Counted from the stretch's first letter, positions 385 to 8,112 are shown. The stretch: DNA of 8,112 nucleotides from a virus (IMGVR_UViG_2925877141_000003), one strand, 5' to 3'. Made by a program: numbers and translations. Notes: generated by a model not told the origin, from the sequence alone.

Positions 385-469
385 CAACTTACTCCACAAA
401 AATCAGACCAGAACGCCAATTACAAGCAAAAATCAACAAAACAGTATTAGTTGATTGTTATCTCTGACT

Positions 470-607
470 TCATACTCCTGCTCCTGTCAGGGTTTTGGCG
501 TAATTCTTCAGTATTCGGTAATCGGTCAAAACAGAACCGGGGAAACGATATAAGCGCAGACGCCCCCAGCGGTGGCGAAGAAGTTCTGCCATATTAAACT
601 CAAACAT
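470..607 (-). CDS. ylcG: Small DLP12-type prophage protein YlcG (45 aa)
   Basis: Minus-strand translation MFEFNMAELLRHRWGRLRLYRFPGSVLTDYRILKNYAKTLTGAGV, read by hand. ATG at 607-605 overlaps the native rusA stop (TGATG). Stop TGA is the complement of 470-472. Sits between rusA and quuD as in DLP12. Confidence 0.7.
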   Translation of the reverse strand: MFEFNMAELLRHRWGRLRLYRFPGSVLTDYRILKNYAKTLTGAGV

Positions 608-678
608 CATTCATTCCCCATTTCGGTGATGGTCAGTTCCAGCCTCCCACCTTTGGTAACAGGCATCTTCACAACGCG

Positions 679-969
679 TTAATCAACGACCTGAGCATCA
701 TCCAGCCAGAAACCTGCTTTAGTGAGTGCGTCAAAAGCGGCTTTTTGCAGATTATCCAGGTCACGGCGACGGCGATCCGGCATGTGGCACTCAATGCGGA
801 TTTTCACAGGCATAGCCAGGCCGATATCCAGCATTGCGTTTTTAATGATTCGGGCGACGTTATCGCGGTATGCCTGCCCCTCTGCGCTGACGTGCGTGCG
901 CCCGCGATTATGGCGGTAATAGCGATTATTGCTCGGAGGCCAGGGTAATGTGATGTTGTAGGTATTCAC
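679..969 (-). CDS. rusA: Holliday-junction resolvase RusA, C-terminally truncated: in-frame TAA at codon 97 where the family has Tyr; native frame would run on to 607
   Basis: Translation [96 protein letters not shown] then TAA (complement of 679-681). The same frame continues RVVKMPVTKGGRLELTITEMGNE to TGA at 609-607. GTG start at 969-967 overlaps the ybcO stop (GTGA). The 154-aa ORF in the track is an upstream over-extension. Confidence 0.82.
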
Positions 970-1256
970 GCCTTGATTACCCCCTCTTTCATCCAGATAA
1001 CCTGCGTTCTCGCCATACCTTCCAGCGCGCATTCTTTTGCATATGCGGCATCGACAAAATGTGTGCGGCGGTCGATTTCGTCGTGGCAGGCAGAACATGC
1101 AATGGTGGCAATCAGGTCTGGCGGTTTGGTACCGGTGCCGCACAATCCAGTCAGCCGGATATGTGCCAGTACAGACGTTTCAGGGTTGCCATTACATACG
1201 CCAAGGATTCTTACCTGGCATTCCCGACCACGCGCTGCTTTTCTCAAATCAGCCAT
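966..1256 (-). CDS. ybcO: YbcO-like DUF1364 protein (putative nuclease, cysteine-rich)
   Basis: Translation [99 protein letters not shown] at 1256-1254 is preceded by a strong SD (AAGGAGGAATCATG) and overlaps the ninE stop. Confidence 0.85.
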
Positions 1257-1419
1257 GATTCCTCCTTGCTGCCAGTCGCAACCATTTTTTATCAACCAGG
1301 CTGGCGGTATATCCGAGCAGTGTTGGTATTTCGGATGGCTTCAGCTCAGGTTTACGCTTACGACGATTTGGTACTCTGTAGATGTGTCCGTTCATGACAC
1401 GAATAAGCGGTGTAGCCAT
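1249..1419 (-). CDS. ninE: NinE protein (56 aa)
   Basis: Hand translation [59 protein letters not shown] at 1419-1417 overlaps the ybcN stop (TAATG). Stop TGA is the complement of 1249-1251. Confidence 0.9.
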   Translation of the reverse strand: MATPLIRVMNGHIYRVPNRRKRKPELKPSEIPTLLGYTASLVDKKWLRLAARRNHG

Positions 1420-1874
1420 TACGCCTCCTGCTTGTCGCGCAGCAGCTGGAACTCGCAGCTCTGCGGAATAGTCAGGTGGCAGCCAATATTCATCGCCCAG
1501 GCTTCAACCTTACACAGGAAGACATACATCTCTCCGGCATCAAGATCGGAGGTATGGCGTAACGACTGGATAGTGGTGATTTCACCGGTTACGACATCAA
1601 CCAGGTCCTTGGTTTCATAACCGAGGTATGTGTGTTTGAGAGCTTCTTTTACCCATGCTGCGGTAGCGAACGATTTCCCCCTGCTGATAAGGTATTCACT
1701 GATTTCGCTGTACCACATGTGGCTGAGTGCATTCTGGGAAAGACTGCGTTTCTCACGCCACGGTTTAAGCACCATGCGAAAGCATTTTCCGTCCTCCAGA
1801 TAAGGCTGGATCTGCTGGCCGATAGCGGTGAAGTTGCCGCGATGTAATTTGATGCCATCTTGTGGTAGGTTCAC
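1419..1874 (-). CDS. ybcN: YbcN (DLP12-type prophage protein, reported DNA base-flipping protein)
   Basis: 151-aa translation [45 protein letters not shown]...[12 protein letters not shown] matches my recollection of K-12 YbcN. GTG start (complement of 1872-1874) is preceded by GGAGGTGAAGC. Confidence 0.9.
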
Positions 1875-2179
1875 GCTTCACCTCCGCAGAGGTCAAACGT
1901 TGGATGCAAAAAATCGCAGGTGCATTTCTGCATCTGTGAAGGGAGAAGAGAGTTTAGATTGTATGTGCGCATAAACGTCCCCGTTTAGCGCAACCCCACC
2001 GCCGGGTGTTCAGGCCGACAGTAACTATATTATTCCCTACTGTTTTTTAAAAATCAAAGGCCTTTATACGTCACACGAGAGCAAATATTTCCGAAGAAGA
2101 AACCTTTCGCCTTGAAAGGATAAAGAGTTCATTTCATAAATTGAAATATTCAATAAGAATATTGCAAAAAATGAAATTA

Positions 2180-2208
2180 TTTACTAGCGAGTCTATCTAA
2201 CTGATAAT
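2180..2208 (+). promoter_or_regulatory. Candidate sigma70 promoter for the downstream nuclease-like gene: TTTACT, 17-nt spacer, GATAAT
   Basis: -35-like TTTACT at 2180-2185 and -10 GATAAT at 2203-2208, about 90 nt upstream of the ATG at 2301. Pattern match only. Confidence 0.25.
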
Positions 2209-2300
2209 TATGAAGATTGTAAGCGGTAGCAATCACCCGCATACACATTGAACAGGATTTAATACAAAACGTCTTAAATTGTCCGTAAGGAATAGCACGA

Positions 2301-3803
2301 ATGACTCAAACTCCACTATTACTTGCAATCATATTTTTATTGGTTGTTCTTGTTCTATATATAGCTGCAATCAAACGCATCAAAAAAATACAATTAGAAT
2401 TAAGTGATAGCAATCAAAAAAATGAAGAATACAAATCTCGCTTTGCAGATTATTTTAATGTGGAAGAGGAATGTAAGAAGCTTATTGAGAAAACAGAGCA
2501 AGAATGCTCCATTATAAAAGAAGAGTCCCAAAAAGTAAAAGAAAATGCCAATAATGAACTAACAAACACCATTGAAAAAATGGATGGTATCAATAAACAA
2601 ATCCAAGAACTAAGAAGAACTTATAAAGAGAAGAAAGAAATATATGATAAGCTAGTAAAGCAAATTTCTATTTATTCAGAAGATGTTGAACTAGCCGAAC
2701 TAGGATTTTACGAACCTCATTTTAATTTTGAAGATTCAGAGCAATTTAAAAACAAAATAAAATCCATCAGGGATGAACAGAAATTAATGCTGCGGGATAA
2801 AACCCACTCTGGTGCAGTATATTGCACAACCCAATGGACTGTTGAAGGCTCTCGAGCAGAGGGTAAAAAAATGACAGACAGAAATATTAGGCTAACTACT
2901 AGAGCATTTAATAATGAATGTGATGCTGCAATTAGTAATTGCACGTGGAAAAATATCACTAAAATGGAAGAACGCATCACAAAGGCATTTGAGGCCATAA
3001 ATAAACTAAACGAGCAAAATCACATATATATAAATACTAAATACCTTAATAAAAAACTTGAGGAGTTGTGGCTTACCCATGAATATCGTGAGCAAAAACA
3101 GAAAGAAAAAGAAGAACAGGCAGAAATAAGGGCACAAATGAGAGAGGAGGAGCGTGCACAACGAGAAATAGAAAAGGCCATGCAAGACGCAGAGGCAGAA
3201 GAGCGCCGTTATAAAAAAGCAATTGAAGCTGCAAGAAAGGAAATGGAAAAAGTTACTGGTGACATGAAGCAGCGCCTCGAAAATCGCATTGCCGAACTAG
3301 AACAGAGTTTGTCGCAGGCTGAATCAAAGCATCAAAGAGCATTATCCATGGCACAACAAACCAAACAAGGTCATGTTTATATTATTTCGAACATAGGTTC
3401 TTTTGGGGAGAATGTTTATAAAATAGGCATGACACGACGTCTTGATCCACAAGACCGTGTAAATGAGCTTGGTGATGCATCTGTTCCTTTTATTTTTGAT
3501 GTGCATGCCATGATTTATTCGGAGGACGCTCCATCATTAGAAAAAAAACTACATGATGTCTTCGATAAAAAGAGAGTCAATCTTGTAAATCGTAGAAAAG
3601 AGTTTTTCTATGTTACTCTGGATGAGATCAAAGAAGCTGTTAAAAAACACTCTGATTCAGAAATTGAATTTATTGAGACAGCAGTCGCAAAAGACTTTAA
3701 TGAGTCATTGGCTATTCGTAATCATGAAAATAAAAAAATCGACAACAGCAACTCATCAATCATACTTGAGCGAAAAATCACAGAGTTTGCAGATGCAATT
3801 TAA
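2301..3803 (+). CDS. Membrane-anchored coiled-coil protein with C-terminal GIY-YIG/T5orf172 nuclease-like domain (DUF4041 or SNIPE-like architecture); candidate anti-phage effector
   Basis: 500-aa ORF with SD-like AAGGA at 2287-2291. N-terminal hydrophobic helix LLLAIIFLLVVLVLYIAAI, then about 300 residues of K/E/Q/R-rich coiled coil. C-terminal GHVYIISNIGSFGENVYKIGMTRRLDPQDRVNELGD (from nt 3369) fits the GIY-x(10)-YKIG-x(3)-R...E pattern. Confidence 0.85.
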   Translation: MTQTPLLLAIIFLLVVLVLYIAAIKRIKKIQLELSDSNQKNEEYKSRFADYFNVEEECKKLIEKTEQECSIIKEESQKVKENANNELTNTIEKMDGINKQIQELRRTYKEKKEIYDKLVKQISIYSEDVELAELGFYEPHFNFEDSEQFKNKIKSIRDEQKLMLRDKTHSGAVYCTTQWTVEGSRAEGKKMTDRNIRLTTRAFNNECDAAISNCTWKNITKMEERITKAFEAINKLNEQNHIYINTKYLNKKLEELWLTHEYREQKQKEKEEQAEIRAQMREEERAQREIEKAMQDAEAEERRYKKAIEAARKEMEKVTGDMKQRLENRIAELEQSLSQAESKHQRALSMAQQTKQGHVYIISNIGSFGENVYKIGMTRRLDPQDRVNELGDASVPFIFDVHAMIYSEDAPSLEKKLHDVFDKKRVNLVNRRKEFFYVTLDEIKEAVKKHSDSEIEFIETAVAKDFNESLAIRNHENKKIDNSNSSIILERKITEFADAI

Positions 3804-3828
3804 TTAATTTGTAGTTAAAACAAAACAG

Positions 3829-3858
3829 GCATCGTTGATACTTTTTGGTCAGCGATGC
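3829..3858 (+). terminator. Hairpin downstream of the nuclease-like gene (10-bp stem, 10-nt loop), possible terminator or RNA-stability element
   Basis: 3829-3838 gcatcgttga pairs with 3849-3858 tcagcgatgc (one G-U pair). Only TT follows, so the U-tract is weak. Confidence 0.3.
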
Positions 3859-4037
3859 TTACATCCTCCTCTCGGAAAACGTCGATTACTTGCAACTTTA
3901 TTTTTAATTTCCAGCAGCAAGTACTAATGCACAACCTCCATTACATACTGATTTGAACATCACGAATCCCGCCTCTAGCTTAAACTACAAAGTATTACCA
4001 GAATCAATCTTATTCATAATTAAACTCCACAGACCAA

Positions 4038-4101
4038 TTGAACATATGAATCCATATTGATATGCTACATCACAATGTGTTAACCATTAGATAACACATT
4101 G
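4038..4101 (+). promoter_or_regulatory. Candidate promoter (TTGAAC, 17-nt spacer, TATGCT) followed by a perfect 10-bp inverted repeat (candidate operator) upstream of the HD gene
   Basis: TTGAAC at 4038-4043 and TATGCT at 4061-4066. Inverted repeat caatgtgtta (4074-4083), spacer ccattaga, taacacattg (4092-4101), about 60 nt upstream of the ATG at 4163. SD-like AAGGAAA at 4151-4157. Confidence 0.3.
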
Positions 4102-4162
4102 AAACTATAAACATCATTACTATTTAAATTTCGTATTATAACTACAGCAAAAGGAAAGCCTC

Positions 4163-5710
4163 ATGACAAACAAAAACAAACTTGAGAACTTTGAAGACTT
4201 ACTTCTGGGGAAGTTTTTAGATCCCATACATGGAGTGATTCGAATAACTAAGCTAGAAAAAAAGATAATTGACCATCCTTTATTCCAACGACTACGAGAT
4301 ATCAGGCAGAACACGTTTCTATATAAAGTATTTCCTTCTGCAATGCACTCTCGCTTTGAACACTCTGTCGGTGTAATGCATTTATCGTATGAGATTTTGA
4401 AAAATATAAATTTGAATGCATTAATTTATGACCGAAAAAATATGGGCATTGATCTATATTTAGATATAAAAAAAATGCCTTCAAGTCTTATACAGGAGTT
4501 ACGTATTGCAGCATTGTTACACGATGTTGGGCATGGCCCACTTGCCCACCAATTCGATAGTTTTGCAATATCCGTAAAAGATTTCAAAGAAAAATGCAAA
4601 ACTGAAGGAAATAAACAATACGATAAGATTATATCTTTAAGTGATAATGACAAGTTAACCCACGAACAAGTATCATGTATTTTTATTAAAGAAATTATTG
4701 AAGAATTAAAAAATGAAGCCCAAGATAAATCAAATGACGACGATGTCTATAAAGAAAACATAGCGGCTATTAATCCAGAAAGCATTATAAAAATTGTTGA
4801 TAAAAGATATGATTTTAAAAATAACATTGAGGGAGTAAATGTATATCCTTTATTAGGTTCAATCATATCATCTTCACCTATAGATGCGGACAGAATGGAC
4901 TACCTACTTAGAGATAGCTACTTCTCCGGCGTTAAATATGGGATTTATGATTATGGACGATTATTAATGTCATTTATTCCTGTGAAAGTTGAAAATAGTG
5001 TTTACCTGGCATATAAAGAAAGTGGTATGGATTCAATACTAGAATTTGCCAATGCAAGAAGTGGGCTTTATAGTCAAGTTTATTTTCATAAGACCAATCG
5101 TGCACTATCTGCGATGCTTAACAAAGCGTGTTCTAGAAAAAAAACTGATGATGTTGTCTCTTTAAAATCTAAAAACACTCTCATTGAGTCCATCAAACAC
5201 TTTTATCGTGAAAACCCAGACAAAACGTTTTTAGAAAACACTCTTAAAAACACATTAGATAAAAATTCTCAAGCTATAATTCAAGATATTGTTGATAGAA
5301 ATGTTTGGAAAAAAATATATGAAAAAAAACACACGTTTTCTAATGTTAACATTTCCGACAACAGATACAAAGAATATAAACAAAATATATCTAAGAAAAT
5401 CAACAAAATCATTGAGGATAATTTAAAAGGAGATGAATGGGTTCTTGATTTTCAGATTGAAGATAACTTTAAAGATATCGATACAAGTCAAGCTAAAATA
5501 ATAAAAAAAGAAACAGGCGGCAAGTATACAATAAATGATTTATGTAAGTATAACGATGTACTTCAACCCTATCACTATGTTAAATTCTTTATTCGAGTTT
5601 TTGTTTCTAAGACAACTCAACTCCAAAACACCGAAGAAATTAATGTGTTAATAAAAAAAATAGATAAATGTCTTAATGATGAGATTGAACATATTAAAAA
5701 AGACAAGTAG
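4163..5710 (+). CDS. HD-domain phosphohydrolase of the SAMHD1-like dNTP triphosphohydrolase family (COG1078-type); candidate dNTP-depleting defence protein
   Basis: 515-aa ORF. N-terminus DPIHGVIRITKLEKKIIDHPLFQRLRDIRQ, then HSRFEHSVGVMHL, LLHDVGHGPLAHQFD and PIDADRMDYLLRDSYFSGV, the characteristic His / His-Asp / Asp metal-ligand motifs of this family. The C-terminal roughly 200 residues are K/N-rich and unassigned. Confidence 0.88.
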   Translation: MTNKNKLENFEDLLLGKFLDPIHGVIRITKLEKKIIDHPLFQRLRDIRQNTFLYKVFPSAMHSRFEHSVGVMHLSYEILKNINLNALIYDRKNMGIDLYLDIKKMPSSLIQELRIAALLHDVGHGPLAHQFDSFAISVKDFKEKCKTEGNKQYDKIISLSDNDKLTHEQVSCIFIKEIIEELKNEAQDKSNDDDVYKENIAAINPESIIKIVDKRYDFKNNIEGVNVYPLLGSIISSSPIDADRMDYLLRDSYFSGVKYGIYDYGRLLMSFIPVKVENSVYLAYKESGMDSILEFANARSGLYSQVYFHKTNRALSAMLNKACSRKKTDDVVSLKSKNTLIESIKHFYRENPDKTFLENTLKNTLDKNSQAIIQDIVDRNVWKKIYEKKHTFSNVNISDNRYKEYKQNISKKINKIIEDNLKGDEWVLDFQIEDNFKDIDTSQAKIIKKETGGKYTINDLCKYNDVLQPYHYVKFFIRVFVSKTTQLQNTEEINVLIKKIDKCLNDEIEHIKKDK

Positions 5711-5752
5711 AGCCCCCCTGATGTTTTAAAAAAACATCTTAACTATAAACAA

Positions 5753-5787
5753 AACGCCATTAGTTACTCTCAGTAACTAGTGGCGTT
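5753..5787. terminator. Near-perfect 16-bp stem hairpin (3-nt loop) downstream of the HD gene; T-rich tract lies on the minus-strand side, possibly bidirectional
   Basis: 5753-5768 aacgccattagttact pairs with 5772-5787 agtaactagtggcgtt (one G-U pair), loop ctc. On the minus strand it is followed by TTTTGTTTATAG. Confidence 0.4.
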
Positions 5788-5823
5788 CATGTCTAATGAT
5801 TGATCCGCAGTATTATCTGGTGC

Positions 5824-5852
5824 TTGTCAATCAGATTTATTCATTGTTTAAT
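5824..5852 (+). promoter_or_regulatory. Candidate sigma70 promoter in the cargo-side intergenic region, reading toward bet'-exo-int: TTGTCA, 17-nt spacer, TTTAAT
   Basis: TTGTCA at 5824-5829 and TTTAAT at 5847-5852. A 7-bp inverted repeat tgattga (5798-5804) / tcaatca (5827-5833) overlaps the -35. Pattern match only. Confidence 0.25.
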
Positions 5853-6058
5853 ACTACCTCAGCATCCTGTTATACGCTACACAACCATTATTACTCATCC
5901 TTTGAGTTACATTTAATATCTGAAATATTTTTGTGTTAATCAATGTGTGGATATATTCCCTACTAATTCACTAATTCATACAGCACCAAGCTAGAAACAT
6001 TGTTATAGTTCCCCGCACAAAGCAAACCATTAAATTTGATTGGATGTTTTCGAGATAA

Positions 6059-6286
6059 CCATCAAATCAAGTAATAACTAATCTCCCATATAACGATGAA
6101 ACCATGCAGGAGATTAACACTCTGCTGATTGCCCTGGACAAAACATGGGATGACGACTTATTGCCGCTCTGTTCCCAGATATTTCGCCGCGACATTCGCG
6201 CATCGTCAGAACTGACACAGGCCGAAGCAGTGAAAGCTCTTGGATTCCTGAAACAGAAAGCCTCTGAACAGAAGGTGGCTGCATGA
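6059..6286 (+). pseudogene. bet: 3' remnant of the lambda bet (Red-beta) gene; only the last ~60 codons remain, 5' part replaced by cargo
   Basis: Translation ...[62 protein letters not shown] matches the Bet C-terminus as I recall it. Stop TGA (6284-6286) overlaps the exo ATG (ATGA) as in lambda. The frame is open from the stop at 6056-6058; recognisable homology starts near 6095. Confidence 0.8.
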
Positions 6287-6963
6287 CACCGGACATTATC
6301 CTGCAGCGTACCGGGATCGACATGAGAGCTGTCGAACAGGGGGATGATGCGTGGCACAAATTACGGCTCGGCGTCATCACCGCTTCAGAAGTTCACAATG
6401 TGATAGCAAAACCCCGCTCCGGAAAGAAATGGCCTGACATGAAAATGTCCTACTTCCACACCCTGCTGGCTGAGGTTTGCACCGGTGTGGCTCCGGAAGT
6501 TAACGCTAAGGCGCTGGCCTGGGGAAAACAGTACGAGAACGACGCCAGAGCCCTGTTTGAGTTTACTTCCGGCGTTAATGTTACTGAATCCCCGATCATC
6601 TATCGCGACGAAAGTATGCGTACCGCCTGCTCTCCCGATGGTTTATGCAGTGACGGCAATGGCCTTGAGCTGAAATGCCCGTTTACCTCCCGGGATTTCA
6701 TGAAGTTCCGGCTCGGTGGTTTCGAGGCCATAAAGTCGGCTTACATGGCCCAGGTGCAGTACAGCATGTGGGTGACGCGAAAAGATGCCTGGTACTTTGC
6801 CAACTATGACCCGCGTATGAAGCGTGAAGGCCTGCATTATGTCGTGGTTGAGCGGGATGAAAAGTACATGGCGAGTTTTGACGAGATGGTGCCGGAGTTC
6901 ATCGAAAAAATGGACGAGGCACTGGCTGAAATTGGTTTTGTATTTGGGGAGCAATGGCGATGA
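6283..6963 (+). CDS. exo: Lambda-type exonuclease (Red-alpha, Exo), full length (226 aa)
   Basis: Translation [54 protein letters not shown]...[15 protein letters not shown] is essentially lambda Exo end to end. Confidence 0.95.
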
Positions 6964-7056
6964 AGCATCCTCACGATAATATCCGGGTATTCGCTCCCGG
7001 GCGGGAAACGAATTAAGGAATCTCTTGGCACAAAGGACAAGCGGCAAGCTCAGGAG

Positions 7057-8112
7057 TTGCACGACAAGCGAAAAGCAGAACTCTGGCGAGTAGAAAAGCT
7101 AGGGGATTTACCTGATGTCACTTTTGAAGAGGCCTGCCTAAGATGGCTTGAGGAAAAAGCTGATAAAAAATCTCTCGATTCAGATAAAAGCCGGATTGAG
7201 TTCTGGCTTGAACATTTTGAGGGTATAAGGCTTAAAGATATCTCGGAGGCAAAGATTTACTCTGCTGTAAGCAGAATGCATAACAGAAAGACGAAAGAAA
7301 TATGGAAACAGAAAGTTCAGGCCGCCATCAGGAAAGGTAAAGAACTGCCTGTTTATGAACCAAAGCCAGTATCAACTCAGACAAAGGCAAAGCATCTTGC
7401 CATGATAAAGGCCATTCTCCGTGCTGCAGAACGCGACTGGAAGTGGCTGGAAAAAGCGCCTGTCATCAAGATACCAGCGGTCAGAAACAAGCGAGTCAGA
7501 TGGCTGGAAAAGGAGGAAGCAAAACGCCTTATTGATGAGTGCCCCGAACCACTGAAATCTGTCGTCAAGTTTGCGCTGGCAACTGGTCTGAGAAAGTCGA
7601 ACATCATAAATCTGGAATGGCAACAAATCGACATGCAGCGACGAGTTGCCTGGGTGAATCCAGAAGAGAGCAAATCAAACCGCGCCATTGGTGTGGCGCT
7701 GAACGATACCGCCTGTAAAGTGTTGCGTGATCAAATAGGCAAGCATCACAAATGGGTGTTTGTACATACCAAGGCGGCTAAGCGAGCAGATGGAACATCA
7801 ACGCCTGCGGTCAGGAAGATGCGCATCGACAGCAAGACATCATGGCTATCAGCTTGTCGTCGTGCAGGAATTGAAGATTTCCGTTTCCATGACCTCAGAC
7901 ACACCTGGGCAAGCTGGCTGATTCAGTCAGGCGTCCCATTATCAGTGCTTCAGGAAATGGGCGGATGGGAGTCCATAGAAATGGTTCGTAGGTATGCTCA
8001 CCTTGCGCCTAATCATTTGACAGAGCATGCGAGGAAAATAGACGACATTTTTGGTGATAATGTCCCAAATATGTCCCACTCTGGAATTATGGAGGATATA
8101 AAGAAGGCGTAA
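7057..8112 (+). CDS. int: Tyrosine integrase (P22/DLP12-family), N-terminally truncated; start codon uncertain (TTG at 7057 is the first canonical start)
   Basis: Catalytic signature [10 protein letters not shown] and LAPNHL with the Tyr in RRYAHL; stop TAA at 8110-8112. In-frame integrase-like sequence [27 protein letters not shown] already begins near 6988, directly after the exo stop, with no ATG or GTG. Confidence 0.85.

Follow-up and report, generated by a model that had tools for sequence, protein, structure and literature searches.

The subject of this analysis is an 8,112-nucleotide (nt) stretch of viral DNA, IMGVR_UViG_2925877141_000003 (hereafter the window, by which we mean the whole stretch), and in particular two adjacent genes that lie as AT-rich cargo within a lambdoid prophage. 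The first gene is SNIPE, also known as PD-lambda-1, a defence system that is already known and experimentally characterised, and the second encodes an HD-domain protein of the SAMHD1 clade. The interpretation that we favour, with a probability of roughly 0.7, is that SNIPE and a putative defence gene for a SAMHD1-type deoxynucleoside triphosphatase (dNTPase, acting on deoxynucleoside triphosphates, dNTPs) constitute two independent modules carried in a variable slot at the ren/nin boundary of the prophage, and that the immunity and replication region was lost later through a separate deletion. The features on which this interpretation turns are the following, with coordinates counted along the window and lengths in amino acids (aa), nt or base pairs (bp).

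1993..3865, + strand: SNIPE module, consisting of an AT-rich upstream region, the SNIPE gene and a downstream hairpin
2301..3803, + strand: SNIPE/PD-lambda-1 gene, 500 aa, with a predicted N-terminal membrane helix, DUF4041 and a C-terminal GIY-YIG (T5orf172) nuclease domain
3829..3858, + strand: hairpin of the SNIPE module, arms 3829-3838/3849-3858 with 9/10 pairs and a 10-nt loop, 26 nt after the SNIPE stop
3866..6044, + strand: HD module, 2.18 kb, G+C 0.311, with its own AT-rich upstream region, the HD gene and downstream hairpins
4073..4101, no strand assigned: perfect 10-bp inverted repeat, CAATGTGTTA N9 TAACACATTG, ~60 nt upstream of the HD start codon
4163..5710, + strand: gene for the SAMHD1-clade HD-domain protein, 515 aa, a predicted dNTP triphosphohydrolase
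5753..5787, + strand: hairpin with 16-nt arms, 94% complementary, and a 3-nt loop, 43 nt past the HD stop; the terminator scan is silent here
6066..6092, - strand: ren remnant, the last 8 codons and the stop, with reverse translation ...YGRLVIT*, collinear with the 3' end of ren in the intact relative L004
6091..6092, no strand assigned: ren'/bet' deletion junction, microhomology of 2 bp (TA); ~6.2 kb present in intact relatives is absent
6093..6286, + strand: bet remnant, the C-terminal 64 codons; RefSeq annotates Bet as incomplete, missing the N-terminus

A variable slot at the ren/nin boundary and a separate deletion

The window matches the chromosome of E. coli 2 HS-C at 100% identity, at a place where RefSeq describes a heavily decayed lambdoid prophage adjoining tRNA-Arg, and it is part of a cryptic DLP12-like prophage at argU. 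Its G+C content is 0.487 over 1-1992, 0.328 over 1993-6044 and 0.494 over 6093-8112, and a sliding profile goes from ~0.50 to 0.25-0.35 across ~1990 to ~6090; the hand counts made in an earlier reading of the DNA from the sequence alone (the sequence-only reading), 17/60 at 2341-2400 and 34/60 at 1441-1500, were exact. That reading had also recognised a lambdoid backbone on both sides, with which Pfam and RefSeq agree, and had set an AT-rich accessory block at 1875-6095. The block itself stands, with narrower edges: 1875-1992 (118 bases) and 6045-6092 (48 bases, comprising backbone downstream of ren and the last 27 bases of ren) belong to the backbone. Among 5426 complete E. coli genomes, on which all population counts given here are based, a stretch equivalent to 1875-1992 is matched in 2802, including K-12, regardless of the adjoining cargo, while SNIPE is found in 131 and the HD gene in 21, so that the block is accessory and not core, as had been supposed. 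The interval 1993-6044 holds two long + strand open reading frames (ORFs), 2301-3803 and 4163-5710, both of them intact and both transcribed opposite to the nin genes.

Intact relatives place this cargo with respect to the rest of the prophage. In two of them (L003 and L004) both genes lie between ren and ylcH-ybcN, and the content continues rightward through ren, P, O, a YdaT/cII-like gene, cro, the repressor gene, kil, gam, bet and exo. The sequence-only reading had taken the cargo to stand in place of the immunity and replication region, and this has to be given up, since these relatives carry both genes plus that region. SNIPE-only prophages have the same arrangement minus the HD gene, and a SNIPE-only version, annotated as PD-lambda-1, is also found in the temperate phage PhiR26_1. 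What related prophages carry at the same position, a comparison that the earlier reading had proposed, differs from one to the next: K-12 has emrE-ylcJ-ybcK-ybcL-ybcM, O157:H7 has a HEPN protein accompanied by a small partner ORF, plus a fragment of an antirepressor, and another E. coli strain has two hypothetical proteins; in an O25:H4 strain ylcH is followed by a hydrolase gene, with no ren annotated within the stretch shown. Five different contents were seen in the ren-ylcH interval. The segment 1993-6044 is cargo in a variable slot at the ren/nin boundary, a site other than that of the immunity region.

The window and L004 are collinear over 469-6095 (L004 8595-14220) and again over 6091-6989 (L004 20465-21363), with ~6.2 kb skipped in between. 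Because the collinearity extends to the region of the ren stop and then restarts inside bet, the loss of the immunity region is separate from the cargo. At the junction the window reads ...CCCATATA|ACGATG..., where the ren side of the parent reads ...CCCATATACCGCC and the bet side ...GGTTAACGATG, and the two parents share TA only. The event is a simple illegitimate deletion running from the last ren codons to the middle of bet, and the earlier statement that the right junction cuts through bet by illegitimate recombination was well founded, with the last 64 codons left and 2 bp of microhomology. The same ren'/bet' deletion is common to three genomes (H1-H3). In our reading the prophage decayed after it had received the cargo, and this one deletion took the whole immunity and replication region and spared both cargo genes.

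We also considered whether the window is simply DLP12 of K-12, and rejected that identification. The two share the argU (tRNA-Arg) site, intD, the ybcN-ninE-ybcO-rusA-ylcG-quuD block and nearly the same exo-int junction; however, both the cargo and the internal deletion differ, K-12 having emrE-ylcJ-ybcK-ybcL-ybcM together with a P'/exo' deletion, whereas the window has SNIPE and the HD gene together with the ren'/bet' deletion.

The first cargo gene is SNIPE

The product of the first gene matches the PADLOC profile PD-Lambda-1 (PDLC03976) with an E value of 5e-198, residues 1-484 falling on profile positions 1-484 of 491. Pfam places DUF4041 at residues 198-252 and T5orf172/MUG113, of the GIY-YIG superfamily, at 357-449, and residues 5-24, PLLLAIIFLLVVLVLYIAAI, are hydrophobic and followed by KRIKK, which suggests a single N-terminal membrane helix. 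Residues E414, E223 and W257 match positions published for SNIPE (PMC13190303), and some RefSeq records label the protein 'SNIPE associated domain-containing protein'. The sequence-only reading had correctly described a membrane-anchored nuclease of the GIY-YIG type, unaware of the experimental characterisation in PMC13190303.

A functional selection in E. coli brought PD-lambda-1 to light (Vassallo et al. 2022, PMC9519451); it was later renamed SNIPE. It is an inner-membrane protein with its nuclease on the cytoplasmic side (Saxton et al. 2026, PMC13190303), associates with ManYZ and the tape measure protein, and cleaves phage DNA during injection while sparing resident prophage DNA and transformed plasmid DNA (PMC13190303). 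Its protection covers lambda-like and many other siphoviruses but neither myoviruses nor podoviruses; SNIPE alone suffices for defence, and the substitution E414A, which removes the catalytic glutamate, abolishes that defence (PMC13190303). The protein encoded in the window has the same length (500 aa), architecture and named residues as the published one, and differs from it in nothing of substance (PMC9519451, PMC13190303). What the window adds is context only, namely a degraded prophage at argU, a deleted immunity region and an HD gene downstream.

Natural isolates also contain inactivated copies of SNIPE. It is interrupted by the insertion sequence IS1 in TB354, Evo1 and CP137705, carries a frameshift in 23AR0806, and is interrupted by IS5 in the SNIPE-only OZ392478. 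This recurrence hints at a cost of SNIPE, or at relaxed selection on it, in some hosts.

The second cargo gene encodes a SAMHD1-clade HD protein

The HD gene has a Shine-Dalgarno-like AGGA 8 nt ahead of its ATG, and its product receives from Pfam a generic HD match only. By phmmer it matches human SAMHD1 with an E value of 4e-26, residues 19-430 aligning with SAMHD1 119-502, and it also matches the bacterial proteins 2hek and EF1143 (2o6i); its identity to SAMHD1-type proteins is only 21-24%. An AlphaFold model built on 26 homologues had a mean predicted local distance difference test score (pLDDT) of 86.3, and when it was compared with the PDB by Foldseek the best 50 matches shown were all SAMHD1 chains, human or fungal, aligned over ~500-530 columns that included the C-terminal lobe, with TM-scores of 0.57-0.72 and a probability of 1.00. 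The protein is by family a true member of the SAMHD1 clade, and the earlier description of it as SAMHD1-like was apt.

Set against human SAMHD1 and the EF1143-type proteins (PDB 4bzb, 6txc, 2o6i, 2hek, 9mr6), the HD protein aligns by both sequence and fold over ~500 residues, and retains the metal site of the HD motif, the catalytic histidines and, as far as the alignment indicates, most allosteric-site residues. Unlike human SAMHD1 it is without a SAM domain, and its gene is carried by prophages and islands. In the N-terminal part of the alignment with human SAMHD1 the numbering is offset by exactly 100. The corresponding positions are as follows, SAMHD1 first.

Catalytic: R164 = R64
Catalytic metal site: H167 = H67; H206-D207 = H120-D121; D311 = D243
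Catalytic: H210 = H124; H215 = H129
Catalytic: Y315 = Y247; D319 = D251; Y374 = Y307
Allosteric site 1 (guanine-specific), putative: D137, Q142, R145 = D37, Q42, R45
Allosteric site 2, putative: R333, H376, K377 = R266, H309, K310

In a set of 26 homologues at 42-77% identity, all of these residues are invariant except D37, which is itself identical to SAMHD1 D137. Allosteric site 2 also has substitutions, with K285 for R352, and S287 and S291 differing from K354 and N358. With a pairwise alignment at 22% identity behind it, the assignment of the allosteric residues is best taken as a lead. Judged from its family and its active site, the protein is very probably a dNTP triphosphohydrolase.

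The protein is not a defence dGTPase of the Dgt type, an identification that the PADLOC, NCBIfam and BLASTP results led us to reject. Run on the two proteins that had been taken for defence-like, PADLOC named the first as PD-Lambda-1 and fell short on the second, for which its dGTPase profile (PDLC02374) gave only 16.7 bits (E 8.9e-4) over residues 59-153 only. The NCBIfam model dGTP_triPase gave 23.4 bits against a cut-off of 152, and BLASTP against a clear Dgt-type member (PADLOC E 2.9e-135) gave an E value of 0.007 over the HD motif only. Dgt-type defence dGTPases (Sp-dGTPase, Tal et al. 2022; Vdg, PMC13519002) share with the HD gene the proposed action, in which an HD-domain triphosphohydrolase depletes a building block of DNA, as well as a single-gene format and an occurrence in defence islands. 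Tal et al. (2022) found their defence dGTPases not directly alignable to SAMHD1, whereas the HD protein is. The Clover system (CloA dNTPase and CloB nucleotidyltransferase, PMC12265719) offers a likeness of another kind, a dNTPase effector regulated by nucleotides. Clover was set aside as well, there being no adjacent nucleotidyltransferase gene in 1993-6044, which holds the two long ORFs only; the HD homologues, too, are without a conserved neighbour.

Genomic contexts of HD homologues

Homologues of the HD protein at 43-77% identity occur, as single genes, in the following contexts.

Klebsiella P2-like prophages: in the interval from the tail fibre gene to gpU
Proteus penneri: immediately following a tail gene of the lambda J type
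P. mirabilis: in an island lodged inside a split icd, next to CBASS genes
Serratia: a single-gene insertion after proA
Enterobacter: beside HigBA
Vibrio splendidus: next to genes of condensin type (DUF3584, MksE, DUF7281) and a gene for a macro-domain protein resembling DarG
Vibrio caribbeanicus: next to a genuine defence dGTPase of the Dgt type
V. cholerae (L076 3519-5021): among short arrayed cassettes with many toxin-antitoxin pairs (RelE/MqsA, YafQ/RelB, YoeB/Phd) and with DUF3709/DUF645 genes

A cargo or defence slot among the tail genes of P2-like prophages has been described (PMC13586616), and the V. cholerae array has the appearance of the chromosomal superintegron. PADLOC profiles for Avs3, Lamassu, Zorya II, Olokun, Hachiman, DarG, dGTPase and PDC-S45/46/49 were hit, with E < 1e-60, by neighbours no more than three genes away from 27 HD homologues. 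No conserved partner of the HD gene was found among the gammaproteobacterial loci.

Some of these contexts deserve a remark of their own. At the V. caribbeanicus locus (L006) the Dgt-type dGTPase gene (6394-7716) and the SAMHD1-clade homologue (7998-9536) stand side by side on the same strand, so that two distinct dNTPase families are present in one locus. In Aeromonas aquatica and A. hydrophila (L009 7183-7803, L079-L081) a 206-aa protein with no Pfam match is encoded directly upstream of the HD homologue and may be a lineage-specific partner. A distant, shorter HD subfamily (Paenibacillus, Planococcus, Fictibacillus, Balneolaceae, Corallococcus and others) is adjoined by a gene for a CYTH-domain protein of ~200 aa (Pfam CYTH E 4.8e-17) at 10 loci (L040, L041, L043, L045, L046, L048-L051 and L053), at a distance of ~100-450 bp. 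Triphosphates are the substrates of CYTH enzymes, and this neighbour could clear the triphosphate product or make a signal.

Boundaries and divergence of the two modules

The left edge of the SNIPE module, 1993, is where most genomes stop matching (base 118 of the query), and its right edge, 3865, is where the match to a SNIPE-only prophage (L002) ends, to resume at ~6045. The hairpin at its end bears out the earlier report of a hairpin between the genes; it has no T-tract, and the terminator scan is silent there. The HD module is present in L003 and L004, and L002 has an unrelated 168 bp instead (L004 11991-14169 versus L002 10992-11159). Direct repeats or shared sequence were looked for at the boundaries of the HD module, and none were found. 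Upstream of the HD gene, the inverted repeat at 4073-4101 may be a regulator binding site and is a candidate operator, and the hairpin at 5753-5787 is likely the transcript end.

The two modules also differ in their divergence. Two allele groups in E. coli are 89.9% identical in the HD gene and 99.3% identical in SNIPE, and the HD differences are concentrated in codons 119-225 and 319-425 (window 4519-4818 and 5119-5418, with 79-85% DNA identity). The synonymous divergence (dS) between the HD alleles is 0.27 overall, and the ratio of nonsynonymous to synonymous divergence (dN/dS) is 0.02-0.08 in the catalytic parts and 0.32 and 0.52 in the two variable segments. The low values in the core indicate that the HD enzyme is under purifying selection, with surface regions changing faster. 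The variable segments may be surfaces pressed by phage inhibitors or triggers, or they may reflect mosaic recombination.

Weighing the explanations

Several observations weigh against the reading of two independent defence modules, and they are given here beside the explanations that they would favour. In all 21 E. coli genomes that carry it the HD gene immediately follows SNIPE in the same orientation, at a distance of 359 bp, an arrangement that could mean dependence: the HD enzyme could be needed for SNIPE defence or enhance it, or it could be activated by DNA fragments that SNIPE releases. The consensus scans for promoters and terminators found sites no more often than in shuffled sequence, and neither between the genes nor after them was a + strand terminator called, so that separate transcription rests on the module structure and not on mapped signals. 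Such a cooperating pair is nevertheless decidedly unlikely, given that SNIPE defends alone (PMC13190303) and occurs without the HD gene in 110 of its 131 genomes as well as in PhiR26_1. The converse is also seen, in that SNIPE is disrupted in at least four of the 21 genomes (IS1 in three, a frameshift in at least one) in which the HD gene is still annotated, with no disruption noted, and no SNIPE-like gene was found within 8 kb of the HD homologue at any of 54 loci outside E. coli, which have no partner gene in common. The separate module boundaries and the differing divergence speak against cooperation as well. The best explanation for the joint occurrence in E. coli is a single ancestral insertion behind SNIPE, though it accounts for the 21 of 21 only as well as dependence does. 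Taken together, two independent single-gene modules, not one operon, are better supported, which was one of the two alternatives that the sequence-only reading had left standing.

The remaining objections concern the defensive role of the HD gene, which might be a housekeeping-type dNTPase or phosphohydrolase that a prophage acquired, serving nucleotide balance, mutation avoidance or lysogen physiology with no anti-phage role. Taken broadly the family is very large (of 8000 candidates scored, 7861 proteins have E <= 0.001), Pfam and NCBIfam give generic HD and weak dGTP_triPase matches only, and one K. pneumoniae cluster of 3530 member sequences sits beside LysR and dehydrogenase genes in what looks like an ordinary chromosomal setting. 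EF1143, a bacterial relative of solved structure, is known as a housekeeping-type dNTPase, and together with the chromosomal-looking members it means that belonging to the family is by itself no proof of defence. The count of defence neighbours for the 27 homologues is a raw one with no matched control, and we infer the activity, substrate range, activators, oligomer state and phage phenotype of the protein, the last from genomic context. Still, a housekeeping role seems unlikely to us for a gene that is rare in E. coli (21 of 5426 genomes) and found there only in the prophage cargo slot, whose close relatives lie in the P2 tail slot, in defence islands and in an integron cassette array, and whose alleles diverge mainly in two surface segments around a conserved core. 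HD-domain enzymes include cyclic-nucleotide phosphodiesterases, and the protein could conversely be a phage counter-defence enzyme, for example one that degrades nucleotide second messengers of host immunity; carriage by a prophage and a match to phrog_35128, a family of unknown function, would suit this. We give that idea very little credence, as the protein keeps the whole SAMHD1 architecture, apparently including the dNTP-substrate and allosteric-nucleotide residues, and its gene also occurs apart from any phage, in an integron and in defence islands of the chromosome. On balance it is reasonably probable that the HD gene protects against some phages. No literature on a tested bacterial defence gene of the SAMHD1 clade was found, in a search whose coverage was incomplete, so that this is absence of evidence only.

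A possible mechanism and its significance

If the HD gene is the defence gene that we suppose, its action may be envisioned from the conserved residues, from SAMHD1 and from the Dgt-type defence enzymes (PMC12265719, PMC13519002). The enzyme would be an oligomer of low activity until a guanine nucleotide and a dNTP occupied the SAMHD1-type allosteric pockets. The active enzyme would then hydrolyse dNTPs to deoxynucleosides and triphosphate, dNTP pools would fall during infection, and phage DNA synthesis would stall for want of substrate. SNIPE acts on siphoviruses at entry, and the HD enzyme would act after entry, later and more broadly, possibly on phages that SNIPE spares.

Since SNIPE is already explained, it is the second gene that gives the locus its value. 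In the defence dGTPases tested so far the likeness to SAMHD1 is confined to the active site, and the HD protein aligns with SAMHD1 over the whole length and appears to keep the regulatory pockets; if its gene defends, it would be a closer bacterial counterpart of the human restriction factor and a tractable model of nucleotide-sensing activation. Antiviral dNTP depletion of the SAMHD1 type, and not only of the distant Dgt type, would then be common to bacteria and animals, and an HD gene behind SNIPE would amount to layered protection, an entry block followed by a replication block. We propose tentatively, at slightly less than even odds, that the HD gene defines a distinct family of bacterial immune dNTPases, homologous to SAMHD1, with the guanine-nucleotide switch kept and with a spread by prophages, integrons and defence islands. 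As the family is undetected by PADLOC, current counts of defence systems may miss it. The locus is also a clean example of how defence genes pile up in one prophage slot and outlast the decay of the prophage.

Backbone and remaining features

The backbone on either side of the cargo holds two further features.

1871..1972, - strand: ylcH-like 33-aa ORF, conserved backbone, a hypothetical protein in RefSeq
6283..6963, + strand: lambda-type exonuclease, backbone, Pfam YqaJ E 2.4e-30, lambda exonuclease family protein in RefSeq

In 2 HS-C the RefSeq order is quuD, ylcG, rusA (pseudo), ybcO, ninE, ybcN, the 33-aa ylcH-like ORF, the DUF4041 protein, the HD-domain protein, the Bet fragment, the lambda-type exonuclease and intD. 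Pfam identifies the Q antiterminator, RusA, YbcO and NinE on the left and the YqaJ exonuclease and the integrase on the right; for ybcN, a name taken from RefSeq, the NinB-like Pfam match is weak and under the Pfam cut-off. The rusA gene (607-969, - strand) has an internal stop codon in 2 HS-C and is annotated as a pseudogene, and its domain hence shows up within an odd 154-aa ORF, 679-1143, in the mechanical ORF list. A scan of the whole window against Rfam at E <= 0.1 returned no RNA family.

Between exo and intD (6964-6989) there is neither xis nor any early-left gene. At this exo-int junction a further 131 bp is missing relative to DLP12 of K-12, so that the K-12 intD frame loses its first 38 nt, and RefSeq gives intD of 2 HS-C a 381-aa product with an alternative start at 6967. 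To the left of the window in 2 HS-C (L001 2384-5266) lie incomplete essD and tail fibre genes, and pieces of a methyltransferase gene and of the type VI secretion system gene for VgrG. Both cargo genes are intact despite the badly eroded state of the rest of the 2 HS-C prophage.

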